From Octopus vulgaris (taxonomy: Eukaryota), in contig OX597818.1 in assembly GCA_951406725.2 (NCBI GenBank), positions 136,772,001 through 136,836,000 on the forward strand: a stretch of DNA of 64,000 nt, read 5' to 3'. Below are positions 12,511 through 47,227 of the stretch, piece after piece (the first letter of the stretch is position 1; the number at the start of each line of letters is the position of its first letter). A model generated the notes under the pieces. It did no database searches, was not told the DNA's origin, and worked only from the letters and a program-made list of their open reading frames with translations. A program made the position numbers and the translations under genes.

Positions 12511-15500
12511 TCATCATCATCATCATCATCATCATTTAGCGTCCGTTTTCCATGCTAGCATGGGTTGGACGGTTCAACTGGGGTCTGGGGAGCCCGAAGG
12601 CTGCACCAGGCCAGTCAGATCTGGCAGTGTTTCTACAGCTGGATGCCCTTCCTAACGCCAACCACTCCGAGAGTGTAGTGGGTGATTTTATGTGCCACCG
12701 ACACAGGTGCCAGACGAGGCTGGCGAACGGCCACGCTCGGATGGTGTTTTTATGTGCCACCGACACAGGTGCCAGACGAGGCTGGCAGACGGCCACGCTC
12801 GGATGGTGTTTTTATGTGCCACCGACACAGGTGCCAGATGAGGCTGGCGGACGGCCACGATCGGATGGTGTTTGTTACGTCCCCAAAGCACGGAGGCCAG
12901 TCTATGCGGTACTGGCTACGGCCACGTTCGGATGATTTTCTTGTGTGCCACCGGCACTGGTACCACAAAGATACAAATTCCATTGATGTTCATCTATTTT
13001 GATTTGTTTTGATTTGATTTGATTTTCACTTGCCTAAAGCACGGAGGCCAGTCTATGCGGTACTGGCTACGGCCACGTTCGGATGATTTTCTTGTGTGTC
13101 ACCGGCACTGGTACCACAAAGATACAAATTCCATTGATGTTCATCTATTTTGATTTGTTTTGATTTGATTTGATTTTCACTTGCCTCAACAGGTCTTCAC
13201 AAGTGTCACAAGAAGGAAGGTATGCACAGGTGGACTGACTACGTCCCAGGTAGGGGCCACGGGTTATGGCCTGACTAGTCTTGCCGGGTCTTCGGATGGT
13301 GTTTTTATGTGCCACCGACACAGGTGCCAGATGAGGCTGGCGAACGGCCACGATCGGATGGTGTTTGTTGCGTGCCCACAGCACGGAGGCCAGTCGATGC
13401 GGTACTGGCTACGGCCACGTTCGGATGGTTTTCTTGTGTGCCACCGGCACTGGTACCACAAGATACAAATTCCATTGATGTTCATCTATTTTGATTTGAT
13501 TTGATTTGATTTTCACTTGCCTCAACAGGTCTTCACAGGTCTTCACAAGTGTCACAAGAAGGAAGGAAGATATGCACAGGTGGACTGACTACGTCCCAAG
13601 TAGGGGCCATGGGTTATGGCCTGACTAGTCTTGCCGGGTCTTCGGTTGGTGTTTTTATGTGCCACCGACACAGGTGCCAGATGAGGCTGGCGGACGGCCA
13701 CGATCAGATGGTGTTTGTTATGTGCCCACATCACAGAGGCCAGTCGATGCAGTACTGGCTACGGCCACGTTCGGATGGTTTTCTTGTGTGTCACCGGCAC
13801 TGGTACCACAAAGATACAAATTCCATTGATGTTCATCTATTTTGATTTGTTTTGATTTGATTTGATTTTCACTTGCCTCAACAGGTCTTCACAAGTGTCA
13901 CAAGAAGGAAGGTATGCACAGGTGGACTGACTACGTCCCAGGTAGGGGCCACGGGTTATGGCCTGACTAGTCTTGCCGGGTCTTCGGATGGTGTTTTTAT
14001 GTGCCACCGACACAGGTGCCAGATGAGGCTGGCGAACGGCCACGATCGGATGGTGTTTGTTGCGTGCCCACAGCACGGAGGCCAGTCGATGCGGTACTGG
14101 CTACGGCCACGTTCGGATGGTTTTCTTGTGTGCCACCGGCACTGGTACCACAAGATACAAATTCCATTGATGTTCATCTATTTTGATTTGATTTGATTTG
14201 ATTTTCACTTGCCTCAACAGGTCTTCACAGGTCTTCACAAGTGTCACAAGAAGGAAGGAAGATATGCACAGGTGTACTGACTACGTCCCAAGTAGGGGCC
14301 ATGGGTTATGGCCTGACTAGTCTTGCCGGGTCTTCGGTTGGTGTTTTTATGTGCCACCGACACAGGTGCCAGATGAGGCTGGCGGACGGCCACGATCGGA
14401 TGGTGTTTGTTATGTGCCCACATCACAGAGGCCAGTCGATGCAGTACTGGCTACGGCCACGTTCGGATGGTTTTCTTGTGTGCCACCGGTACTGGTACCA
14501 CAAAGATACAAATTCCATTGATGTTCATCTATTTTGATTTGGTTTGATTTGATTTGATTTGATTTTGATTTTCACTTGCCTCAACAGGTCTTCACAAGTG
14601 TCATAAGTAGGAAGGTATGCACAGGTGGACTGACTACGTCGCCGGGTCTTCGGATGGTGTTTTTATGTGCCACCGACACAGGTGCCAGATGAGGCTGGCG
14701 AACGGCCACGATCGGATGGTTTTCTTGTGTGCCACCGGTACTGGAACCACAAAGATACAAATTCCATTGATGTTCATCTATTTTGATTTGGTTTGATTTT
14801 CACTTGCCTCAACAGGTCTTCACAAGTTTGGTTTGATTTTCACTTGCCTCAACAGGTCTTCACAAGTGTCACACGTGTCACACACTTGCCTCAACACGTC
14901 TCCACAAGTGTCACACACTTGCCTCTGCCTCAACAGGTCTTCACAAAGTGTCACACACTTGCCTCTGCCTCAACAGGTCTTCACAAGTGTCACACACTTG
15001 CCTCAACAGGTCTTCACAAGTGTCATAAGAGGGAAGGTATGCACAGGTGGACTGACTACGTCGCCGGGTCTTCGGATGGTGTTTTTATGTGCCACCGACA
15101 CAGGTGCCAGATGAGGCTGGCGAACGGCCACGATCAGATGGTGTTTGTTGTGCCCACAGCACGGAGGCCAGTCGATGTGGTACTGGCTACGGCCACGTTC
15201 GGATGGTTTTCTTGTGTGCCACCGGTACTGGAACCACAAAGATACAAATTCCATTGATGTTCATCTATTTTGATTTGGTTTGATTTGATTTTTGATTTTC
15301 ACTTGCCTCAACAGGTCTTCACAAGGGTCACACACTTGCCTCAACAGGTCTCCACAAGTGTCACACACTTGCCTCTGCCTCAACAGGTCTTCACAAGTGT
15401 CACACACTTGCCTCAACAGGTCTTCACAAGTGTCATAAGAGGGAAGGTATGCACAGGTGGACTGACTACGTTGCCGGGTCTTCGGATGGTGTCTTTATGT

Positions 15501-15560
15501 GCCACCGACACAGGTGCCAGATGAGGCTGGCGAACGGCCACGATCGGATGGTGTTTGTTG
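12511..15560 (-). repeat. 3-kb compound tandem array built from the family B (RTE 3' UTR) sequence
   Basis: 62-bp units (12690, 12752, 12814); alternating 336/356-bp units form a 692-bp higher-order repeat (identical ORFs at 13181 and 13873); distal ~35-bp subrepeats. Confidence 0.92.
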
Positions 15561-15694
15561 GATTCGTAAAATGCTAGAGCAGTGGTTCTCAACCATTTTT
15601 TGCCTATAGACTCTCTTGGTTCCTATTTTACTCGACTGAAACCGCAAAACCATTTGATGTTTTTAAAAAGTTCCATTATATTTTTATAATTTTA

Positions 15695-35962: not shown

Positions 35963-36340
35963 GGATGGAAGCACTCCGTCGGTTACGACGACGAAGGTTC
36001 CGGTTGATCCGAATCAACGGAACAGCCTGCTCATGAAATTAACGTGTAAGTGGCTGAGCACTCCACAGACACGTGTACCCTTAACGTAGTTCTCGGGGAT
36101 ATTCAGCGTGACACAGAGAGTGACAAGGCCGGCCCTTTGAAATACAGGTACAACAGAAACAGGAAGTAAGAGTGAGAGAAAGTTGTGGTGAAAGAGTACA
36201 GCAGGGATCACCACCATCCCCTGCCGGAGCCTCGTGGAACTTTTAGGTGTTTTCGCTCAATAAACACTCACAACGCCCGGTCTGGGAATCGAAACCGCGA
36301 TCCTATGACCGCGAGTCCGCTGCCCTAACCACTGGGCCAT
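35963..36340 (-). mobile_element. tRNA(Arg)-like SINE family F, full body
   Basis: TGGCCCAGTGGTTAGGGCAGCGGACTCG head; TSD TGATTCAAT. Confidence 0.88.
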
Positions 36341-36946
36341 TGATTCAATAGAGTTCTACTCAAAGGCATTTCAACTTTGACCATCCTGTCTATTTAGGAA
36401 TGCCTAGAAGTACAAAGTTTAATATGTCCTTCTATCTTTGCTTTTAAGATGGTAGGATGCGATTTGAGATATATTTGACTGCTATTTCTAGAATCAGCTC
36501 CATTAGCTCGTAAATCATTATTTTTATACAGCTACTAATAATGATAAGCACTTTAATAATTAGATGACTTTCACAAAGAAAAGTTCAGTAACGAGATAAC
36601 AGAAATTCTGATGTTTTTGGTTCTATTACTCACCCACTGCCTCTTTTTTTATCATTTTTTTTTCTGTAATAAAAGTCAACAGATTGCATTAGCATATTTT
36701 GTCCTTCTAAGTCATTAATTCCAAAAGAACAAAGCCCTTATTGGAAATGGCATCTGGGTCTATGCTACATAATTAAACTCAACAACACTTCAGCTATCCT
36801 TGTAATTTCACCAACGACATTTATCTTGGCATCTAATTAACAAATACTCTTTATTCATTTAATATTTTAAATATATGTTTATAAATTCCATAGATTTGTG
36901 TATGCTATTATTTCCATAAGTTATTTACCAAATACAGATAACTTAC

Positions 36947-37137
36947 AGACCAGTAATTCCTAAATTATCTGATTGGAGCAAAATGCTGTTGTGGTTGTTA
37001 TTATCCACCATACTAATGGCAGCACCAATATAACAGTTGTGTCAGATTATTATCACATTTGCAAAGACAGATGGTTTCACAGATCTGATTTGTAAAAACA
37101 TTCTTCACTGTTGGAACGTTAGAAAGTGGTGCAGTAT
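36947..37137 (-). other. Candidate exon (191 nt)
   Basis: Unique sequence between TTCTAATTATAG and GTAAGT; contains agtATGg opening MVDNNNHNSILLQSDNLGITG; no homology recognised. Confidence 0.3.
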
Positions 37138-39061
37138 CTATAATTAGAAACATTACAGTAATTTAGTCACACACCTCTCTGTCTTAGGTTCAAATCTCAC
37201 CAGAACTAAATTGGCCTTCCCTCCCTGCAGAATGTTTTGTTGTTATTTAACCCCAAGTCAGTCCTGATCCAGCAGACCTATGATCTGTGACCATCCTGTC
37301 TTATTTTATCAATGTATTCTTCCTTTATAAAGACAATACAGAGTTGCTTGTTTTTTTTCTGCAGGGAAGAAGGTAGATTTGGCTGCTAGGTCTAGCTGTT
37401 CAAGCATCCATGTAGACATTCTTTTGCTGGCTTATCCCTTTGGGAATTTTTGCTGTTTAGCCACAAGTAAAATCTAGCCAATTAGACCTATGATCAAAGG
37501 TATTCCAACAATGACTCTCCTGTCTTTTGAAACAATTTATGAACTACAGTCTAATCATGTATTCTCTATTATCTTGAAGATGGTATTGCATGATTTGAGA
37601 GAAATTTAGCTATTATTTCTAATAAATTAAGTAGCCACATAGAGGCATGCTCAGTAGCACATCCTTCCTGGGATTGATAAAATAGATACCAGTCAAATGC
37701 TTTGGTCTGATTAACTGATCTCATATTTCCCTTTGTGCCAATGTATAACAATACATTAATCTGAATGGTACATTCCAAGAATACTATATTAAAATATTTT
37801 GGAATATTATATTCTGTATCAGAAATTACAGTTTGTTTTTCTGTAAAACCATTTTGGAACTTTCATCTCCAAACAACCAGAGTTGAAATTTTGAACATTC
37901 ACAGACAACATCATTCCCTCCAGTTCATAACAAAAACACAGTTGTTTATTATCTTTGGCTCCTGTTACAGCTTGTTTATTACAGAGCTTCTCTGGTTTAT
38001 CTTGTATACGGGAAGTATATAGCTTTGAGGGAATTGAAAACCAGAGGAATATATTGACACAGGATTCTACAAAAGATCTGGCAAGATAGAAAGTACAAAA
38101 GGAAAAATGAAAGAGAAAATAGGGCAAGAGAGAGAGACAGGGAAAATGGAGTAAGAGAAGAGGGAGATGGGTAGTTAGGCAGTTAGATAGACAGAAAGGT
38201 AATTTGATATATATAGGAAGATAGATAGAAAGATAAATATGAATAGAGAGAGAGAGAGAGAGCGCTGTAGAGAAGCAATATTGCATGCAATTTGTCTAAT
38301 TTATAGAAAAGACAGAAGCCAAGTAAGGTTAATTGAGTGTGTGAGAACAATGTTAATGTAGGTATACTAGATCAAGTGTTTGACCTCTTTTAGTGATCAT
38401 AGATATCCATTAATGGGCGAGTTGTGTTAATTACTTAAGAGGGTGGAGAAATGGCAGTTGAGAAGATTCTACTACATATCTGGGCATTATTTATAAGTGG
38501 AATTAGAAAGGTGGTGAGCCGGAAGAACTGTTAGCATGCCGGACAAAATGCTTAGCAGCATCTCATCCATCAACAAAAAATAGCAACCAAAACTCCCTCA
38601 CATCACACTCCATTATGTTAAGAAAATAACCCACAATTGATAAAGTAGGCCTGGGTTCCCAGCACAGAAATATGAGATGGTTAAGGCCGGAATGCTGTAG
38701 ATCATAGGTTTGCTCAATCAGGGCTGACTTAGAACTACTTCAGCAGCCATCGTTAACAATCTACTCCAAGCAATGCTATCACTACCATTAAACTCTTACT
38801 ATCATAACAAAATATGTTAATGAAGGGGCCTCTATGTGGTTCCTCAACCTGCCAGAAATAGCACCAAAATCATACTCTTGATAAAAAAGCACATTAAAAT
38901 ATAGTTCTGCAAACCACCGAATGATTCACAAGGAAGGACTGAATATGCAGATGGTGCACTCCAGTCTACCCTTGGGGAAGTTCCTGGCAAGAAACCAAAC
39001 TAGAAGCAGTATTGAGGGAAGCACATTGTCCAGTTGTGCGATCAACATGCTCGGGAGTCTA

Positions 39062-39585
39062 CATCATCATCATCGTTTAACGTCCACTTTCCATGCTAGC
39101 ATGGGTTGGACGGTTCAACTGGGGTCTGGGAAGCCTGAAGGCTGCACCAGGCCAGTCAGATCTGGCAGTGTTTCTACAGCTGGATGCCCTTCCTAACGCC
39201 AACCACTCCGAGAGTGTAGTGGGTGAATTTATGTGCCACCGACACAGGTACCAGACGAGGCTGGCGAACGGCACGCTGGATGGTGTTTTATGTGCCACCG
39301 CACAGGTGCCAGACGAGGCTGGCAGACGGCCACGCTCGGATGGTGTTTTTATGTGCCACCGACACAGGTGCCAGACGAGGCTGGCAGACGGCCACGCTCG
39401 GATGGTGTTTTTTGTGCCACCGACACAGGTGCCAGACGATGGTGGATGGTTTTTATGTGCCACCGACACAGGTGCCAGACGAGGCTGGCGAACGGCCACG
39501 CTCGGATGGTGTTTTTTATGTGCCACCGACACAGGTGCCAGACGAGGCTGGCGAACGGCCACGCTCGGATGGTGTTTTTTTATGT
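39062..39585 (-). mobile_element. Family B tail with 62-bp repeats (same subfamily as the 12.5-kb array)
   Basis: Near identity to 12511-12870. Confidence 0.88.
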
Positions 39586-39589
39586 ATTA

Positions 39590-40000
39590 TCTACATAATA
39601 CATAAAGTGGTCTGTTGTAAACGTGACCTATACTACAATGGGGGCACCATCAGAAAGCTGCATACAGCATTAAAGAACATATGCACACAAACACATCAGT
39701 TTATAAACACTTGCTGAAGTGTCATACCCAGGATTTTACTTCAACTATCAGAGTCTTGGAATGCCATATTAGGAATCTATGAATCAAGGAAGCTATTTGA
39801 ATAAATTTCGACTTTTGTTAACAGACAAGAACTATATAAGGCAGACTAATTACTATAACACCAGTCTGCATATGTCACTATCCTCTCCCATATATCTGAC
39901 GAAAGATAATAGCTCTATACCATCTCTCAATTCTCCATGTGTCCTGATGAAAGTACTACCCCCAAATATCAAAGAAATACGGGGTAAAACATTAAATGTT
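39590..40000 (+). pseudogene. Penelope-like GIY-YIG endonuclease relic and downstream pseudo-LTR region
   Basis: HKVVCCKRDLYYNGGTIRKLHT / IKEHMHTNTSVYKHL...NL*IKEAI*I after one frameshift; CTGACGA (39896) and CTGATGA (39944) motifs downstream. Confidence 0.7.
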
Positions 40001-40003
40001 TCC

Positions 40004-40482
40004 TAGATGAACATCAATGGAATTTGTATCTTGTGGTACCAGTGCCGGTGGCACATAAGAAAACCATCCAAACATGGCCGTAGCCAGTACCGCATCGACT
40101 GGCCTCCGTGCTGTGGGCACGTAACAAACACCATCCGATCGTGGCCGTTCGCCAGCCTCATCTGGCACCTGTGTCGGTGGCACATAAAAAACACCATCCG
40201 AGCGCGGCCGTCTGCCAGCCTCGTCTGGCACCTGTGTCGGTGGCACATAAAAAACACCATCCGAGCGTGGCCGTTCGCCAGCCTCGTCTGGCACTTGTGT
40301 CGGTGGCACATAAAATCACCCACTACACTCTCGGAGTGGTTGGCGTTAGGAAGGGCATCCAGCTGTAGAAACACTGCCAGATCTGACTGGCCTGGTGCAG
40401 CCTTCTGGCTCCCCAGACCCCAGTTGAACCGTCCAACCCATGCTAGCATGGAAAGCGGATGTTAAACGATGATGATGATGAT
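40004..40482 (+). mobile_element. Family B tail, inverted relative to 39062-39585
   Basis: 62-bp repeats, family motif, (GAT)n tail. Confidence 0.88.
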
Positions 40483-41330
40483 TTCAGTATTTCATCTGTT
40501 TTGCATTGTTCTAGCCTTTTAACAACTCATAATCAAATTTAATATCACACAATGCTTCACTCAGTCTTGGTATAATTTTGCTTCTAAGTAGCTTTGTCAT
40601 TGACCTCAAAAACTTGTTTTTCCCCTAAAAGACAACTGCCCAAAACACTGGATTTATCACTTCTCGTGGCAAATTAATTCATTGTAATTTATTTCATCTA
40701 TGAACTTTATATAATAAAAAATAAGATGAAAAAAAAATGCAAGAGAAAGAAAGTCATCATCTGCCATTATGAAAATGATGGCAAGATAAGGTGAAGAATA
40801 CCATTTCAGGTATTTTAGTGTTTGAATCTTCAGTTTAGTGGATTCTCTCTGCTGATTCTGATAACAGTGACAGCAGTAAGGTTAATGGAATTGTGATTAT
40901 CACATAACAATCAACAAAAGAAAGGTACACAACAAAAACAGGATCATTGAGTGAAGTCGCTCGGTAGCAGTGAGATGCCGATAATGGTTACAGATATAAT
41001 ATTAGAAAACAACATAACAGTTGCTATTGTCTGTTTGTCATAAGCAAGAAAGTGGTGTATGAAACAGTGCAGAGAAGCCAAACATGTTCAAATTTAATGT
41101 ATAGTTTGGAAAATTAGACAATATGATGGAGGAATTCTATTGCAATTGGATATTGGTTTCTATCTTTTTCTGATAGAAGCCTCTTCAATTAAATGAAAAC
41201 ATACCTAAGAAAATAGGACTGATATCTGCTTGTCTTTTGCAGTACATACACATGCACATACCTGGGTGGAAATGTTTGTTTTTTTTCTTATTCAGTTAAA
41301 GTAGTTACTACTGGAATTATATAATTTATT

Positions 41331-41746
41331 ATAAGAAATACTAATTACTAACATTCGTGTTAGATTGACAGTATACAACCATTCTATCGCCTCACCACCG
41401 TACATGTCTCTACGAGAGATTTAGAAATTTAGTATTTCTTATTTTGATAATCAGTGAATAGACTTCACTGAATTATAGATATATACAATACGAAGTCGAG
41501 ACAAATATTGCCGGCTGACCGGTGTCTGCTACTCTAGGCCGATGAAGGACAATGATCCTGAAACACGTGTCCCTAGATGCAGCTCCGGCGGCCGGGGGTG
41601 TTTGTCTCCCCTTCGTAAATGTATATAACGACACAGGGAAAAATGTGTCAAAGCCATCAGGAGGCGTTGATGCTTTCTAGGGCTATACAGCGGTGGTGTA
41701 CCCCCCTACTGTCACGTTCGTGTTAGATGGACAGTATACAACCATT
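41331..41746 (+). mobile_element. Candidate retrozyme / Penelope-mobilised hammerhead-containing monomer (363-bp period)
   Basis: 33-bp direct repeats 41351-41383 and 41714-41746 (2 mismatches), internal hammerhead, flanking TTAWATAATTTATT duplication. Confidence 0.75.
41533..41577 (+). ncRNA. Minimal type I hammerhead ribozyme (U4C core variant)
   Basis: TCTAGG-CCGATGA-AGGA(caatga)TCCT-GAA-AC(acgt)GT-C-CCTAGA: stems I, II and III all pair; predicted cleavage after GUC at 41571. Confidence 0.8.
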
Positions 41747-42104
41747 TTAAATAATTTATTGTTCTGTCTTAAAGAATTGGCAGGCATATGAATGACTATG
41801 CTTCACTGAAGAAGTTTAATAAGGCAGAAATATGCCTGGAATTGTAACTCCTGTCTGTAGAATAGATTATTCTTCACTTCACTGATTGTTTACTTCCAAT
41901 TCTAATTTAAGCGAGACATTGATGCATCGATTCGTTTCAAAAGTTTTTGTTTGATTTGCTTTTGAGTTGTCACCCTTGCTTTTGTGTTTGGTTAATTGAG
42001 GGCAGTTATTCTCAACCTTTTTGACTCTGTGGCAAATTAGAGTTTAATAAAATGTAAGACAATACAGAAACTATTATGTCTTTACTTGGTCTTTTTAATT
42101 TTAA

Positions 42105-42512
42105 TCTTTTACTTGTTTCAGTCATTAGACTGCAGCCATGCTGGGGCACCGCCTTGAAGAAATTTATAGTCAAATGCATCAACTCCAGTACCTTTTTTTG
42201 TTTCAAGCCTGTTACTTATGCTGTTGATCTCTTTTGCCGAAACACTAAAATACGGGGACATAAACACACCAACACCGGTTGCCAAGTGGTGGAGGCAAGG
42301 ATAAACACAGACACACATACATAGACACACACACACACACACACACATACAACAGGTTTCTATCAATTTCTGTCTACCAAATCCACTCATAAGGCTTCAG
42401 TTGGTCTGAGGGTATATATAGAAGACACTTGCCCAAGGTGCCACACAGTGGGACTGAGCCCGGAACCATGTGGTTGGGAAGCAAGCTTCTTACCACACAG
42501 CCACAACTGCAC
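42105..42512 (-). mobile_element. Older SINE family A
   Basis: Consensus match with private variants. Confidence 0.85.
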
Positions 42513-43984
42513 CTGGCAGTTTAATATTGCAGCCATATTTCCGTTGCCTCACTATCAATAAAAAATGCCATATTGATTTTTTAACTGGCTGTTGAAATGG
42601 CTGACCAATGCTTTGCGAGGAAGAAACTCTGAAGAAGCCCATTGCATGTGTAGGTGTTAGTCATTATGTTTGCTGTTGCATTAATGCTATTTGAAGAATC
42701 TGCATTTCATGTCTTGTATCTTAGTGGGGTAATTAAAGAGAGAACACTAATATAAGAAACCAGACTTTGAAATAAGTGCTGAGATCAATACAATGGACAA
42801 CAATACTTCAAGGTATTACCCCGATATGGTTGTAGATCAGTGATTGAAACCAGTAAAAGCATAACAGAGATGAGAAAATGACGAAGATACAAACATTGTT
42901 GGAAGAAAAGACGACAATGTAGATAACAGCAGAAGTGTTTTAGAGAATCATTAAAACAAGAACAAAAACAACAAGAATAACATCAACCTCAAGAAGTACC
43001 ACAGAAACAACAATTGCCAGAACACCGCCAGCTACCACCACCACCACCACCACCACCACAATAATAACAACTACCAGAACCATACCTACAGCAGCCAGAA
43101 CCATTATACCAATGAAAGTTTTATTGCTTTCCTGTTTGGTTTCTGAGTTTTTTCTCTCTCTCTTGAACATAAAAAGGTGGAATCTATTTGCTAATTTTTC
43201 AATCGGAATTTTCTACCACCTCCGGCTGAACGGTTATTTCTTTTTAGCCTTCTATTTTATTCTCCACCCCCACCCCCCACCTGCCACTTTAATTGATCAA
43301 TGATCAATGAATCAGTAATAATATAAACATATAAGTAAAAATAGATAAGTGAATATAGTTTCGAATAAAATATTTAGAATACAGAGAAAGAAAGAAAGAA
43401 AGAAAGAAAGAACAAGAACAAAAATATAAATAAATGGTAAGTGAAGAAATATATTAGGAAGAAATAAACATGGTTTTTCGTTTTTGCAAACAATAAAAGC
43501 AATCAAATAATAAATTAAATAAATGAATACAAAAAGAAAAATATAATTAGATAGAAATTAGGAAAAAAATTGCATAAATTTTAAATACATATAAATATAT
43601 TACAGCAATGTTTAGATACATTATGTGTTGTGTTTGTTTAGTTCCTTAACTTAAAGGAGAGATAGGAGTATTCATAAACTTTAGAGTCCCTTTGAGTATG
43701 GTGAGGTTATTGCTTGTGTTTTGATCTTGCAAATCTATGTTCAAAGATGTTGAGTTTGCTTGACACACAATAGGATAATATTATTATTCAATATGTGCTT
43801 CCTTTAGAAGCACACATTGTGTCATATGAAGAAAATTTAGCTGCTATTTGTAGCAGGTTGGGTGACTAAATAGAGGCTCCTTTATTGGCTTCCCTTTTGT
43901 GGGTTGAAAGCAATACTGGTTGGGAGAGATTTCTAGGAAGAACCAGTTCTAGGTAGTGAGAAAACATATGAGAAATGACAGGGT

Positions 43985-45100
43985 TGGCCAGCTGGAGAGC
44001 AGAAGAGGTGGAGAGCAGGCCAACTGGAGCGCAAGTCAAATGGAGAGCAACCCAAATGGAGCGCAAATCAAATGGAGAGCAACTCAAATCGAGAGCAGGC
44101 CAACTGGAGAGCAAGTCAAATGGAGTGAAGGCCAACTGGAGAGCAAGTCAAATGGAGTGAAGGTCAACTGGAGAGCAAGTCAAATGGAGTGAAGGCCAAC
44201 TGGAGAGAAGGTTGTGGGTTGAAAGCAATACTGGTTGGGAGAGATTTCTAGGAAGAACCAGTTCTAGGTGGTGAGAAGACATGAGAAATGACAGGGTTGG
44301 CCAGCAGAAGAGCAGGCCAGTTGGAGAGCAAGTCAAATGGAGAGCAGGCCAGCTGGAGAGCAAGTCAAATGGAGAGCAGGCCAACTGGATAGCAAGTCAA
44401 ATGGAGTGAAGGCCAACTGGAGAGCAAGCCATCGGGAGAGAAGGCCAGCCGGAGAGCAAGTCAAATGGAGAGTAAGTATAATGGAGAGCAGGCCAGTTGG
44501 GGAGCTAATCAAATGGAAAGCAGGCCAACTGGAGAGCAAGTCAAAATACACACACACATACAACAGGCTTTCAATTTCTGTCTAGCAAGTCCACTCATAA
44601 GGCTTCAGTTGGTCTGAGGCTATATATAGCCAAATGGGGAGCAGGCCAGCTGGAGAGCAAGTCAAAATACACACACATACAACAGGCCAACTGGAGAGCA
44701 AGTCAAATGGAGAGCAAGCCAAATGGAGAACAAGTCAAATGGAGAGCAGGCCAGCTGGAGAGCAGGACAAATGGAGAGCAAGTCTAATGGAGAGCAGGCC
44801 AGATGGAGGGCTGGCCAACTGCAGAGCACACCTACTGGAGGGCTGGCCAGCTGGAGAGCAAGTCAAATGGAGAACAAGCCAACTGGAGAGCAGGTCAAAT
44901 GGAGAGGAGGCCAACTGGAGAGCAGGCTGACTGGAGAGCAGGCCAACTGGAGAGCATGCCAGCTGGAGAGCAGGTCAACTGGAGAGAAAGCCAACTGGAG
45001 AGCAAGCCAGCTGGAGAGAAGGCCAACTGCAGAACAGGCCTACTGTTTATTTCTTCCCAACTGGAGAGCAAGTCAACTGGAGAGCAGGTCAGCTGGAGAG
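43985..45100. repeat. 16/32-bp minisatellite (GGAGAGCAGGCCAACT / GGAGAGCAAGTCAAAT)
   Basis: Dozens of degenerate units; contains duplicated flank and SINE pieces. Confidence 0.95.
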
Positions 45101-45458
45101 GCAGCACAGGGTTGAGTGAATTCTGTAGTTATGCAAAGGGCTGTGGCATTCTTTTGGAGCTAGTCCTGAAAAATGTACCTAAGGCACTCTGTAAAGTGGT
45201 TGGTGTTGGAGAGGGTATCGATCCTTAAAAACCAAACCAGATGTTTGAACAAAATGTGATTCTCTAACATTTCAGATTGTGTCCAACCATCCTAACCATA
45301 TAAGCATGGTAAGCAGATGTAAAATTATGTCAATGATGATTCATTTATTTATTTCTTCCACTGTCTTTTATTTGTTTCAGTTACTGAACTGTGGCCATGT
45401 TGGGGCACCACTTCAAATGCTTTAGTCAAACAAATCGACTTCAGCACTTACTTTTTAA

Positions 45459-45677
45459 CCCTTTAGTGTTCTGATTAGTCTATCATACATATTGCTAATT
45501 GATTCCCATTGATTTGAATTAATCAAGCATTATCTCATGTCTTCAAGATCTTGATGGTGTAATTACTTAATGTAGAATAACATTGTAGGGTAGGTGTGAG
45601 AGCCTGGATCTGGTCAGTTTGAACATAAAACAGATTAAATATTTTGGCTGGATATGGCCGGTTTAAATACTAAAGGG
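45459..45677. mobile_element. piggyBac-like MITE E1 (219 bp) inserted into a SINE A tail
   Basis: TTAA TSDs (45455-58, 45678-81) and perfect 9-bp TIRs. Confidence 0.9.
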
Positions 45678-46099
45678 TTAAGTCTGGCCCTTACTTTGTT
45701 GGTCTCTTTTGCCAAATTGCTGAGTTATGACTATAAAACAGTGCCTGAATAACATGCATTCGCCTAATCCATATTAACAAGGCAAAACAAATTTGTATAA
45801 CATATTTTATGCCAAAGAAAGGTTTAATGTAGTTTAACACAGTTTATAAAGCTTACACTGTGGAAAGTAAACAAAAGTGAATACATTATGTTATTCTCTT
45901 TGCACAGAGAAAAATTTATGCATGGATGGAAGGAAGTTGTGGAAGAGGGTGACCCAGGAGCACGTGGGACAAAATACTTAAAACACTGAACCTTATGAAG
46001 ATGACAGAAGTCTGAGATATGTGGCACATTGCTGTACTCAAGAAGTTCCACCCACCACAATAGACTTGAGATCCTAAAACCAAGATGCCACATAAAGAG

Positions 46100-46620
46100 T
46101 GTAAAGGGAACTGGTTGCTTCTTTACACTTTTGGGGTGCAACTTGGGTGCAACACAATTTCCTTTCTTTTTGTTTCTAGAAACTACCAGTCAGGAACGAA
46201 ACGCAAGTTTATAAATATATACAATTCTTTATTCTCTTATTCAACAACGAAACATGATGGTATACTGGTATCCACCTAGTTCAACACAGCAAGGCTGAAT
46301 TCTAACGTTTGTAAGCTTTTTACAACAATTCAGCATTAATAGAACAGGTTAAATCCTAAGCGTCTGGGACAGGAGAATAGGCTGATCACACGTTTAAAAT
46401 ACGTCCTTTCTCTTCTATCGCCGTATCTCAAGTTCCCGATGCTATTAAGGAACGCGACAGAATTTCTTCTTCAGTCTCTAGCGCATGTGCATGAGGGAAC
46501 TTCCTTATGCCTTTCCAGAAGGTTCCAACCCTGCACACGCACACTGAAGAAGGACGTTCCGCACACGCACACTGAAGAATGACGTTGCGTGTGCGCACAC
46601 TGGAATATGACGTCACTACA
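46100..46620 (-). mobile_element. Solo LTR (521 bp), Gypsy-like
   Basis: TGTA...TACA ends, 4-bp TSD AGAG, minus-strand AATAAA at 46228-46233, CpG-richer than flanks, 3x ~29-bp internal repeat. Confidence 0.72.
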
Positions 46621-47227
46621 AGAGCATTGATATGGGTGCTGGTGCCAAGTTGAAAGCACCTGCTACACTCTGTGAAGTGATTGGCATTAGGTAGAAACCA
46701 ATCCAAAACAGACTATGGAACATGGTGCCAGCCCTGGACTTGCCAGTTCCTGTGAAGCCATCGAACCCATGCCAGCATGAAGAGCAGATGTTAGATGATG
46801 ATGATGATGATGAATGTGTGTGTGTCTACTGTCCATTAATTTTCGTATAAAACCCTAATTATTTTTTAATTATCATCAACCATAGGTATATTATGATGGA
46901 TTACTACAAACGTTGTACAACAGAACCACACCAGAATGGAAATCTGAGGAACATCATTTTGTTTTTATCTTGATTTTAAACATGTTACATGATAGCAGCC
47001 TTGGGCTTTTGTCTTTCATTACCAAATTTCTTCAAAAGCACTTTTATGACACGAATTCCAAAAAAAACTAGAGTATCATATTCCTTGGCCGCTTTCAAGA
47101 CCTCATTTTTTTTTTTTTTACAATAGCAATGGCACAGTAAGAAAGAAACTAATACATCTTGTGTTCATTGGATTGTTTGAAAATATTTTATAGAGCAGAT
47201 CTTTTTCACAAAACTGCTTTAAAGAAC

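Follow-up and report, generated by a model that had tools for sequence, protein, structure and literature searches.

A non-LTR retrozyme family of Octopus vulgaris with a variant hammerhead core, a PSE-like motif and a LINE that inserts at its predicted start site

A 64-kb window of the Octopus vulgaris genome (the whole 64,000-nucleotide stretch analysed here) contains a dispersed insertion of a non-autonomous non-LTR retrozyme, made up of 1.1 units and a short inverted arm. As to how such an element moves, the mechanism that we infer, and hold to be probable at roughly 0.7, combines snRNA-type transcription, slow dimer-dependent cleavage, circularisation and two-strand Penelope-like priming. 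An initial annotation of this DNA had claimed a minimal type I hammerhead whose stem III is palindromic, in the setting of a Penelope element or a retrozyme, with stems, core and cleavage triplet in exact hammerhead order; every part of the motif is in its place, and the setting is that of a non-LTR retrozyme, whose unit measures 363 bp and whose insertion ends are of Penelope type. The element itself, its promoter-like motif and the LINE that targets it had not been seen, and it is the promoter and LINE link, more than the ribozyme, that gives the finding its weight. The octopus family addresses the question of how animal retrozymes are transcribed and mobilised. Its features in the window, with u denoting unit positions, are as follows.

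41321..41330, + strand, left 10-bp target-site duplication ATAATTTATT (direct read)
41331..41351, - strand, short inverted arm that matches u71-u92 as reverse complement and stops at fixed 3' end B (u92)
41351..41713, + strand, 363-bp retrozyme unit (u1-u363); the window copy really begins at about u4, 41354
41388..41442, + strand, 55-nt 'tail' (u38-u92) between the two fixed 3' ends
41450..41458, + strand, PSE-like motif ATCAGTGAA, matching the element 57-60 bp upstream of U1/U2 genes
41480..41627, + strand, rod-like hairpin of ~150 nt with the hammerhead at its apex (folding)
41507..41523, + strand, site duplicated by LINE/ORF1-only insertion in other copies, empty in the window copy
41533..41577, + strand, type I hammerhead fold (direct read, descriptor scan, covariation, dimer model)
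41533-38 / 41572-77, + strand, stem I TCTAGG/CCTAGA
41539-45, + strand, core CCGATGA, with C at core position 4 (41540)
41546-59, + strand, stem II AGGA caatga TCCT
41560-62, + strand, GAA
41563-70, + strand, palindromic stem III ACACGTGT
41571, + strand, C preceding the predicted cut, which falls after 41571
41714..41749, + strand, beginning of a second unit (u1-u36), cut off at fixed 3' end A (u37)
41751..41760, + strand, right 10-bp target-site duplication ATAATTTATT (direct read)

The retrozyme family and its hammerhead

The unit is non-coding (GC 44.6%, longest ATG frames 42 codons) and has the attributes of a non-LTR retrozyme, namely a non-coding unit of 150-450 bp, GC below 50% and no LTR. 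In its own genome (2.8 Gb; 40 of 2039 candidates scored) the copies are 94-98% identical and occur as partial tandems with inverted arms. Exact patterns returned 388 matches for the window-type hammerhead, 324 for sister-subfamily hammerheads and 3394 for a 17-mer near the unit's 3' end, with 0 for the reversed control each time. Same-strand hammerheads lie 362-369 bp apart, as tandem units, at 8 loci among the first 100 matches listed, element arms reach 1252 nt, and the whole element folds at z = -8.2. Taken alone, the inverted arm of the window is a weak match (22 nt, 91%, E 0.076), consistent with the rule on A and B ends described below and with the duplication; with its one hammerhead, the window copy is probably a dead-end daughter. 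An internal Pol III B box was considered and rejected, GTTCGATGC being present in one subfamily only while the others read GCGTCGATGC in a hairpin.

A hammerhead descriptor allowing one core mismatch found 41533-41577 as its sole match on both strands of the window; among 30 shuffled windows there was 1 loose match, and none that combined a 6-bp stem I with a palindromic stem III. Compared with the canonical type I core, C3, G5, A6, N7, G8 and A9, then G12, A13 and A14, the A15.1-U16.1 pair and H17 are present; U4 is absent, replaced by C at 41540, and we therefore class the motif as a core variant and not as a canonical hammerhead. The Rfam hammerhead models, a check of the kind that the initial annotation had proposed, were silent, with no match at E<=10 in 36000-47000 of the window. 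Six related loci likewise gave nothing at E<=1, among them two with canonical cores (L216, L092), so that the models do not cover the Penelope-type minimal hammerhead. In the minimum free energy (MFE) fold of the window hammerhead as a monomer, the core GAU is paired with the GUC triplet, an inactive fold; that of two copies is an active double hammerhead, at -27.5 versus -17.8 kcal/mol for two monomers. Modelling and covariation together support the idea that the palindromic stem III favours a hammerhead dimer.

Across 18 aligned copies C3, G5, A6, G8 and A9 are invariant and position 7 is variable. Double changes affect 3 pairs, with G-C/A-U in stem I and A-U/G-C in stem II. The sequences are related, and about three past events account for the covariation. 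Of the stem cells, 94.9% are paired, a level reached by 0 of 500 shuffles, and slid controls attain at most 52%. Stem III varies in length (ACACGUGU, ACAUGCAUGU, ACAUGCGUGU, ACUAGU), each variant self-pairing; one subfamily has a central G.G mismatch (ACACGGUGU). The expectation that homologues would conserve the stems and core was upheld in that the stems covary and stem III stays self-complementary and, judged from these alignments, the hammerhead fold is under selection.

The C at core position 4 had been ascribed either to decay of the window copy or to a family variant, with a comparison of CTGATGA and CCGATGA across the genome to decide between them. The second alternative stands: C4 is the family state in the copies compared, with C in 97 and T in 3 of the first 100 window-type matches listed and C in 125 of 138 hammerheads extracted from 111 loci (three of them chosen for T), and these counts rule out decay as its source. 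Sister subfamilies have C4 in 76 and T in 24 of 100, with 23 of these T in one stem II type. In the young subfamily T4 occurs in 5 of 92 passes, similar to other CpG sites (mean 4.5%). One subfamily with U4 groups among C4 rows, with starred support, in an unrooted tree of 44 rows comprising all sister loci and 20 chosen young loci. Elsewhere in the genome most hammerhead families carry U4 or are altered in other ways, so that C4 was probably derived and then retained. In a viroid hammerhead, U4C is reported to lower in vitro activity considerably (PMC3088659), and the U4C viroid ribozyme is nevertheless still functional in vivo (Ambros and Flores 1998, cited in PMC3088659). We found no description of a family-wide U4C in the mostly open-access main texts searched. 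As the C4 family with its covarying stems illustrates, standard hammerhead descriptors miss whole families, and a 'forbidden' C4 kept while stems covary makes selection for slow cleavage testable.

Other hammerheads accompany this family. At least four further retrozyme families, with units of 349-362 bp, a palindromic stem III and similar ends, lie at L210-L212, L215-L217, L219, L222, L226, L229-L239 and L296-L323; their cores read CTGATGA, CTGAGGA, TTGACGA, TTGACAA, TTGAAAA, TTGATAA or CCGACGA and their stem III ACTAGT, ACTATAGT, ACTGCAGT, ACGCGT, ACTCGAGT or ACATGT. Canonical-core motifs with GAAACACGTGT, mostly at the same 14-nt spacing, number 95 in the genome, a few of them being T-copies of the window-unit family; ~90 motifs of the form CTGATGA-N14-GAAACACGTGT are highly heterogeneous and belong to older repeats (L051-L070, L081). 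An isolated 67-nt fragment between short repeats (L087, C30:4513927-4513994) consists of the hammerhead alone and matches one contig type in all four sequencing runs examined, presumably of RNA, contigs being unable to show start, end or level. Elsewhere in the window there are a 16/32-bp tandem repeat GGCCAACTGGAGAGCA of ~1.1 kb (43986-45100), and tandem repeats of 62-63 bp and of 350 bp that consist of a GC-rich, SINE-like unit (12681-15585, 39228-39585, 40116-40315).

The PSE-like motif and insertions at the predicted start

Among the snRNA loci examined in the octopus genome, ATCAGTG stands 57-60 bp upstream of the gene in 12 of 12 for U1 and, if one mismatch is allowed, in 13 of 15 for U2; its exact occurrences number 9 in 128 kb (both strands of the window). 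With the PSE ~60 bp upstream of a predicted +1, the motif and spacing of the unit equal those of U1 and U2, and the retrozyme seems to carry the promoter of host snRNA genes. Motif spacing and LINE junctions place the predicted transcription start at ~41507-41510. As the LINE junctions mark this candidate start site to the base, promoter, cut and circle become testable.

Same-strand motif pairs ~2 kb apart are units split by an insert, of which there are two types: a 1.6-kb ORF1-only element with a CCHC knuckle, and a 5.5-kb element that additionally has APE, RT and zf-RVT. The best Atlas cluster for the LINE protein is Transposon TX1 149 kDa (score 0.96), the Tx1 label coming from the domains and this cluster name. 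Inserts end in AATAAAG, and on either side of them lies a 14-17 bp duplication taken from u157 onward, with the letters of the subfamily that serves as host. Counted from ATCAGTG, this duplication begins 55-60 bp downstream in 19 of the 21 insertions for which both junctions were available, and 46 and 52 bp downstream in the other 2; some of these insertions may be copies of one composite. Target letters differ among insertions, and U2 and one retrozyme family have TTYATCG in common. LINE/unit composites end at u37/u92 in (TA)n, which indicates that the LINE travels as cargo.

The 3' flanks of the 21 closest RT relatives, classified by eye, held a hammerhead retrozyme in 13 (2 of the window-unit family), U2 snRNA from +1 in 3 (Rfam 178.8 bits) and a retrozyme start followed by another element or sequence in 3; in 2 none was found. 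In the next LINE family (85-86%) the flank was a retrozyme in 8/10 and a tandem LINE in 2/10, and in a family 82-84% identical in RT a hammerhead was found at 0/8 flanks, so that the targeting does not extend to all LINE relatives. In an unbiased sample of 30 of 236 ORF1-only 3' ends, 18 adjoined a hammerhead retrozyme by eye (7 of the window-unit family; stricter script labels gave 11 hammerheads), 6 a retrozyme start and then another element or sequence, and 6 neither. The ORF1-only 1.6-kb element (L168-L174), a derivative of the LINE which we take to be HAL1-like, has 236 exact 3'-end matches, and its copies are 72-94% identical. No LINE insertion at U1 was seen in the flanks examined. U2 snRNA arrays with the Tx1-type LINE at -3..+14 lie at C3:20.77-20.84 Mb and C23:43.31 Mb (loci L209, L213, L223, L248, L252, L267), each showing 14 additional nt at the 5' junction that resemble the start of another retrozyme. 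In three U2-inserted LINE copies 13 positions of this extra stretch match the first 14 nt of another retrozyme family; this is probably one event, and it fits a LINE RNA that started at the +1 of that retrozyme. Intact Tx1-type LINEs also form head-to-tail arrays with a period of 5.28-5.37 kb (C5:29.18-29.20, C9:59.21-59.25 and C2:73.05-73.07 Mb).

These observations invite a wider reading, which we put forward tentatively and without quite favouring it, of a three-tier parasite system in which retrozymes would have captured a PSE, deliberately slowed their dimer-dependent hammerheads and spread by Penelope enzymes, and a Tx1-type LINE would dock on the SNAPc-bound PSE. The LINE's site might then be chosen by docking and not by target sequence, at the start of U2 genes and of every retrozyme family alike. 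Equally tentatively, the LINE may use the retrozymes' promoter and hitchhike on retrozyme insertions. LINE targeting of retrozymes was not described in the mostly open-access main texts searched.

Insertion anatomy and its explanation

The arms of the element end at two fixed 3' sites, u37 (A) or u92 (B). The 111 loci hold 58 pairs of inverted arms; in 39 pairs both arms stop at a fixed site, and every one of these joins one A to one B, whereas in the other 19 at least one end lies away from u37/u92. Fixed ends are flanked by (TA)n in 94 of 151 cases, by CT runs in 6 and by other sequence in 51, where 10-12 bp duplications are visible by eye. The traits of Penelope mobilisation (partial tandem, inverted 5'-truncated arm, one-end tail, AT-rich target) are all present: Penelope-like elements are described with a tail on one end and an inverted truncated copy (bioRxiv 2021.04.23.441226), and an anole Penelope-like protein with two internal start sites (PMC11167929), by analogy with which the 55-nt tail would lie between two reverse-transcription start sites. 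Penelope dependence of animal retrozymes had been proposed from co-occurrence and similarity (PMC7229834; bioRxiv 2026.07.22.740005), and the insertion anatomy, with two fixed ends, one per strand, provides direct genomic evidence on retrozyme mobilisation.

The genome has intact RT/GIY-YIG elements of the Penelope-like type, which are flanked by (TA)n and show two 3' ends. The 363-bp unit had no sequence in common with an autonomous partner in 36 GIY-YIG loci or stretches sampled from the top-scoring families, and a young 781-codon RT/GIY-YIG family, considered as partner, had no sequence match to the unit and was not assigned. That family (L071-L080, L086) has an intact 781-codon frame preceded by one of 479 codons, and its 3' region of ~1 kb contains internal repeats. 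Its two 3' ends lie in (TA)n at a distance of 40 nt from each other, and inspection by eye shows a hammerhead-like motif of the U3-A8 kind.

Locus-unique alleles are common to both units at 8 of 76 sites in tandems and 8 of 89 in two arms, and at 2 of 1584 across loci, in pairs that are not independent and with L107 left out; of 112 arms, 8 are long enough to include two predicted start sites. Both observations suggest repeated copying of one template, and gene conversion could be an alternative source of the shared alleles. In a nearest-neighbour test of same-template origin, which did not support it, units within a locus were mostly not closer than the nearest outside copy (8/46, 15/53). The 5' arm ends form no peak at either candidate place: of 112, 2 come within 3 nt of u222, the cut site, and 2 coincide with the predicted +1, these last being LINE junctions. 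Neither place was retained as template 5' end; the arm ends cluster at u184 (8) and u327 (7) of 112, in loci partly chosen by hammerhead patterns, a selection that biases these counts. The truncation hot spots correspond to 41533-35 (u183-185) and 41675-79 (u325-329) of the window, both at CTAG palindromes.

In the mechanism that we favour, an internal snRNA-type promoter would start transcription ~25 nt before the hammerhead, and in tandem copies two hammerheads would pair through their palindromic stem III and cut slowly, C4 weakening the core. Cleavage would release unit-length RNA, to be circularised. A Penelope-like RT/endonuclease, supplied in trans, would nick both strands of AT-rich DNA, and would copy the RNA from two internal sites, u92 on one strand and u37 on the other, passing round it more than once. 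The Tx1-type LINE would insert at the promoter start site, as at U2, and be transcribed from the promoter and carried as cargo. Against this we count the inactive monomer MFE, the in vitro loss with U4C, the lack of a 5' peak at the cut site and the lack of a partner match. Hammerhead mutants did not affect insertion by the anole Penelope-like protein (PMC11167929), and 8/9 Xenopus retrozyme dimers are reported not to have cleaved (bioRxiv 2026.07.22.740005).

The main rival keeps the same element and promoter and supposes that the hammerhead no longer cuts, the fold being kept as structure and uncleaved tandem transcripts being copied with template jumping; through a palindrome-driven RNA-RNA dimer, a dimeric RT would receive two templates at once, one for each strand of the DNA. 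We consider this unlikely. In its favour, C4 has been kept across subfamilies 73-90% apart though one CpG transition restores U4, other families have altered cores (TTGACGA, TTGACAA, TTGAAAA, CCGACGA), no 5'-end peak marks the cut, both insertion arms overlap on the template and cleavage is dispensable in vitro (PMC11167929). Yet the invariance of C3, G5, A6, G8 and A9 with position 7 free (18 rows) is the pattern of a catalytic core, U4 is found in one subfamily and most other families, and the U4C viroid ribozyme is functional in vivo (PMC3088659). Far less probable, and largely refuted, is the proposal that an autonomous element with LINE-type ORFs has the 363-bp unit as its pseudo-LTR or UTR, so that the LINE would mobilise the unit. 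ORF1-only and ORF1+ORF2 elements do lie between unit halves, in composites ending at u37/u92, but the inserts end in AATAAAG and bear 14-17 bp unit duplications that follow the host subfamily, and the same LINE family occurs in U2 genes and unrelated hammerhead families, so that the LINE is a passenger. The unit-derived duplications rule out the unit as LTR of the LINE, and Penelope elements are characterised both by arms that overlap on the template and by the tail rule (bioRxiv 2021.04.23.441226, PMC11167929). A chance motif or decayed single copy, as the position-4 mismatch, A-U for G-C at 10.1-11.1 and silent Rfam models might suggest, is refuted by the covariation, by the shuffles and by a count of 388 exact matches where the reversed control gave 0.

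Comparison with known systems

Non-LTR retrozymes, the minimal hammerheads of Penelope elements and the link between both are already known (PMC7229834, PMC4209133, bioRxiv 2026.07.22.740005). The squid genome paper lists 235 Rfam hammerheads, and in the mostly open-access main texts searched we found no description of the octopus 363-bp hammerhead family. It resembles the metazoan non-LTR retrozymes in its non-coding 150-450 bp unit with GC under 50% and one type I hammerhead per unit (PMC7229834), in its tandem and monomeric copies with strong self-pairing, and in unit size, those of mussels being 350-390 bp, with Penelope dependence proposed (PMC7229834; bioRxiv 2026.07.22.740005). It differs in the family-wide C4, the Penelope-minimal hammerhead geometry and an explicit A/B two-end rule; a PSE-like promoter and LINE targeting are not described for metazoan retrozymes in the accessible text of these sources (PMC7229834; bioRxiv 2026.07.22.740005). 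Non-LTR retrozymes are characterised by expression as linear and circular monomer RNA, on which the DNA evidence from the octopus family bears indirectly.

With the hammerheads of Penelope-like pLTRs the family shares a palindromic stem III, a predicted dimer and partial tandems (PMC4209133; bioRxiv 2021.04.23.441226; PMC11167929), and with insertions of Penelope-like elements, as far as these are described, an inverted 5'-truncated arm, a one-end tail, AT-rich or (TA)n targets and two internal start sites. In contrast to those elements, the octopus unit is without an ORF, its tail is 55 nt versus a reported 30-40, and it has no sequence match to the autonomous elements examined. Newt satellite 2 is likewise a hammerhead repeat (~330 bp) with an internal snRNA-type promoter (Coats et al. 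1994, cited in PMC2220036); the octopus host is an invertebrate, and its promoter is inferred from motif, spacing and LINE junctions. The viroid U4C hammerhead has the same core change as the octopus family. There it is a variant, whereas in the octopus C4 prevails in a genomic family whose copies number in the hundreds.

Target-specific LINEs of the Tx1 clade include Keno (U2), Tx1L (Tx1D transposon) and Tx1-Mar (PMC4494074, PMC4640811), and the targeting of U2 and transposons by Tx1 is attributed to endonuclease specificity (PMC4494074). The octopus LINE resembles the clade, as described there, in APE, RT, zf-RVT and a CCHC ORF1, in insertion into U2 genes and mobile elements and in its tandem arrays. 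It differs in occupying -3..+14 of U2 and the equivalent site in several retrozyme families. The Keno site inside U2 is further downstream than that of the octopus LINE, and TRE5-A, positioned by TFIIIB near tRNA genes, is an analogue of a promoter-positioned LINE. The target letters of the octopus LINE also differ between retrozyme families, its distance from the PSE-like motif being constant. If the three-tier reading is true, the positioning of a LINE by the promoter complex of snRNA genes would be a form of target choice new to APE-type retrotransposons and could be useful for site-directed insertion.
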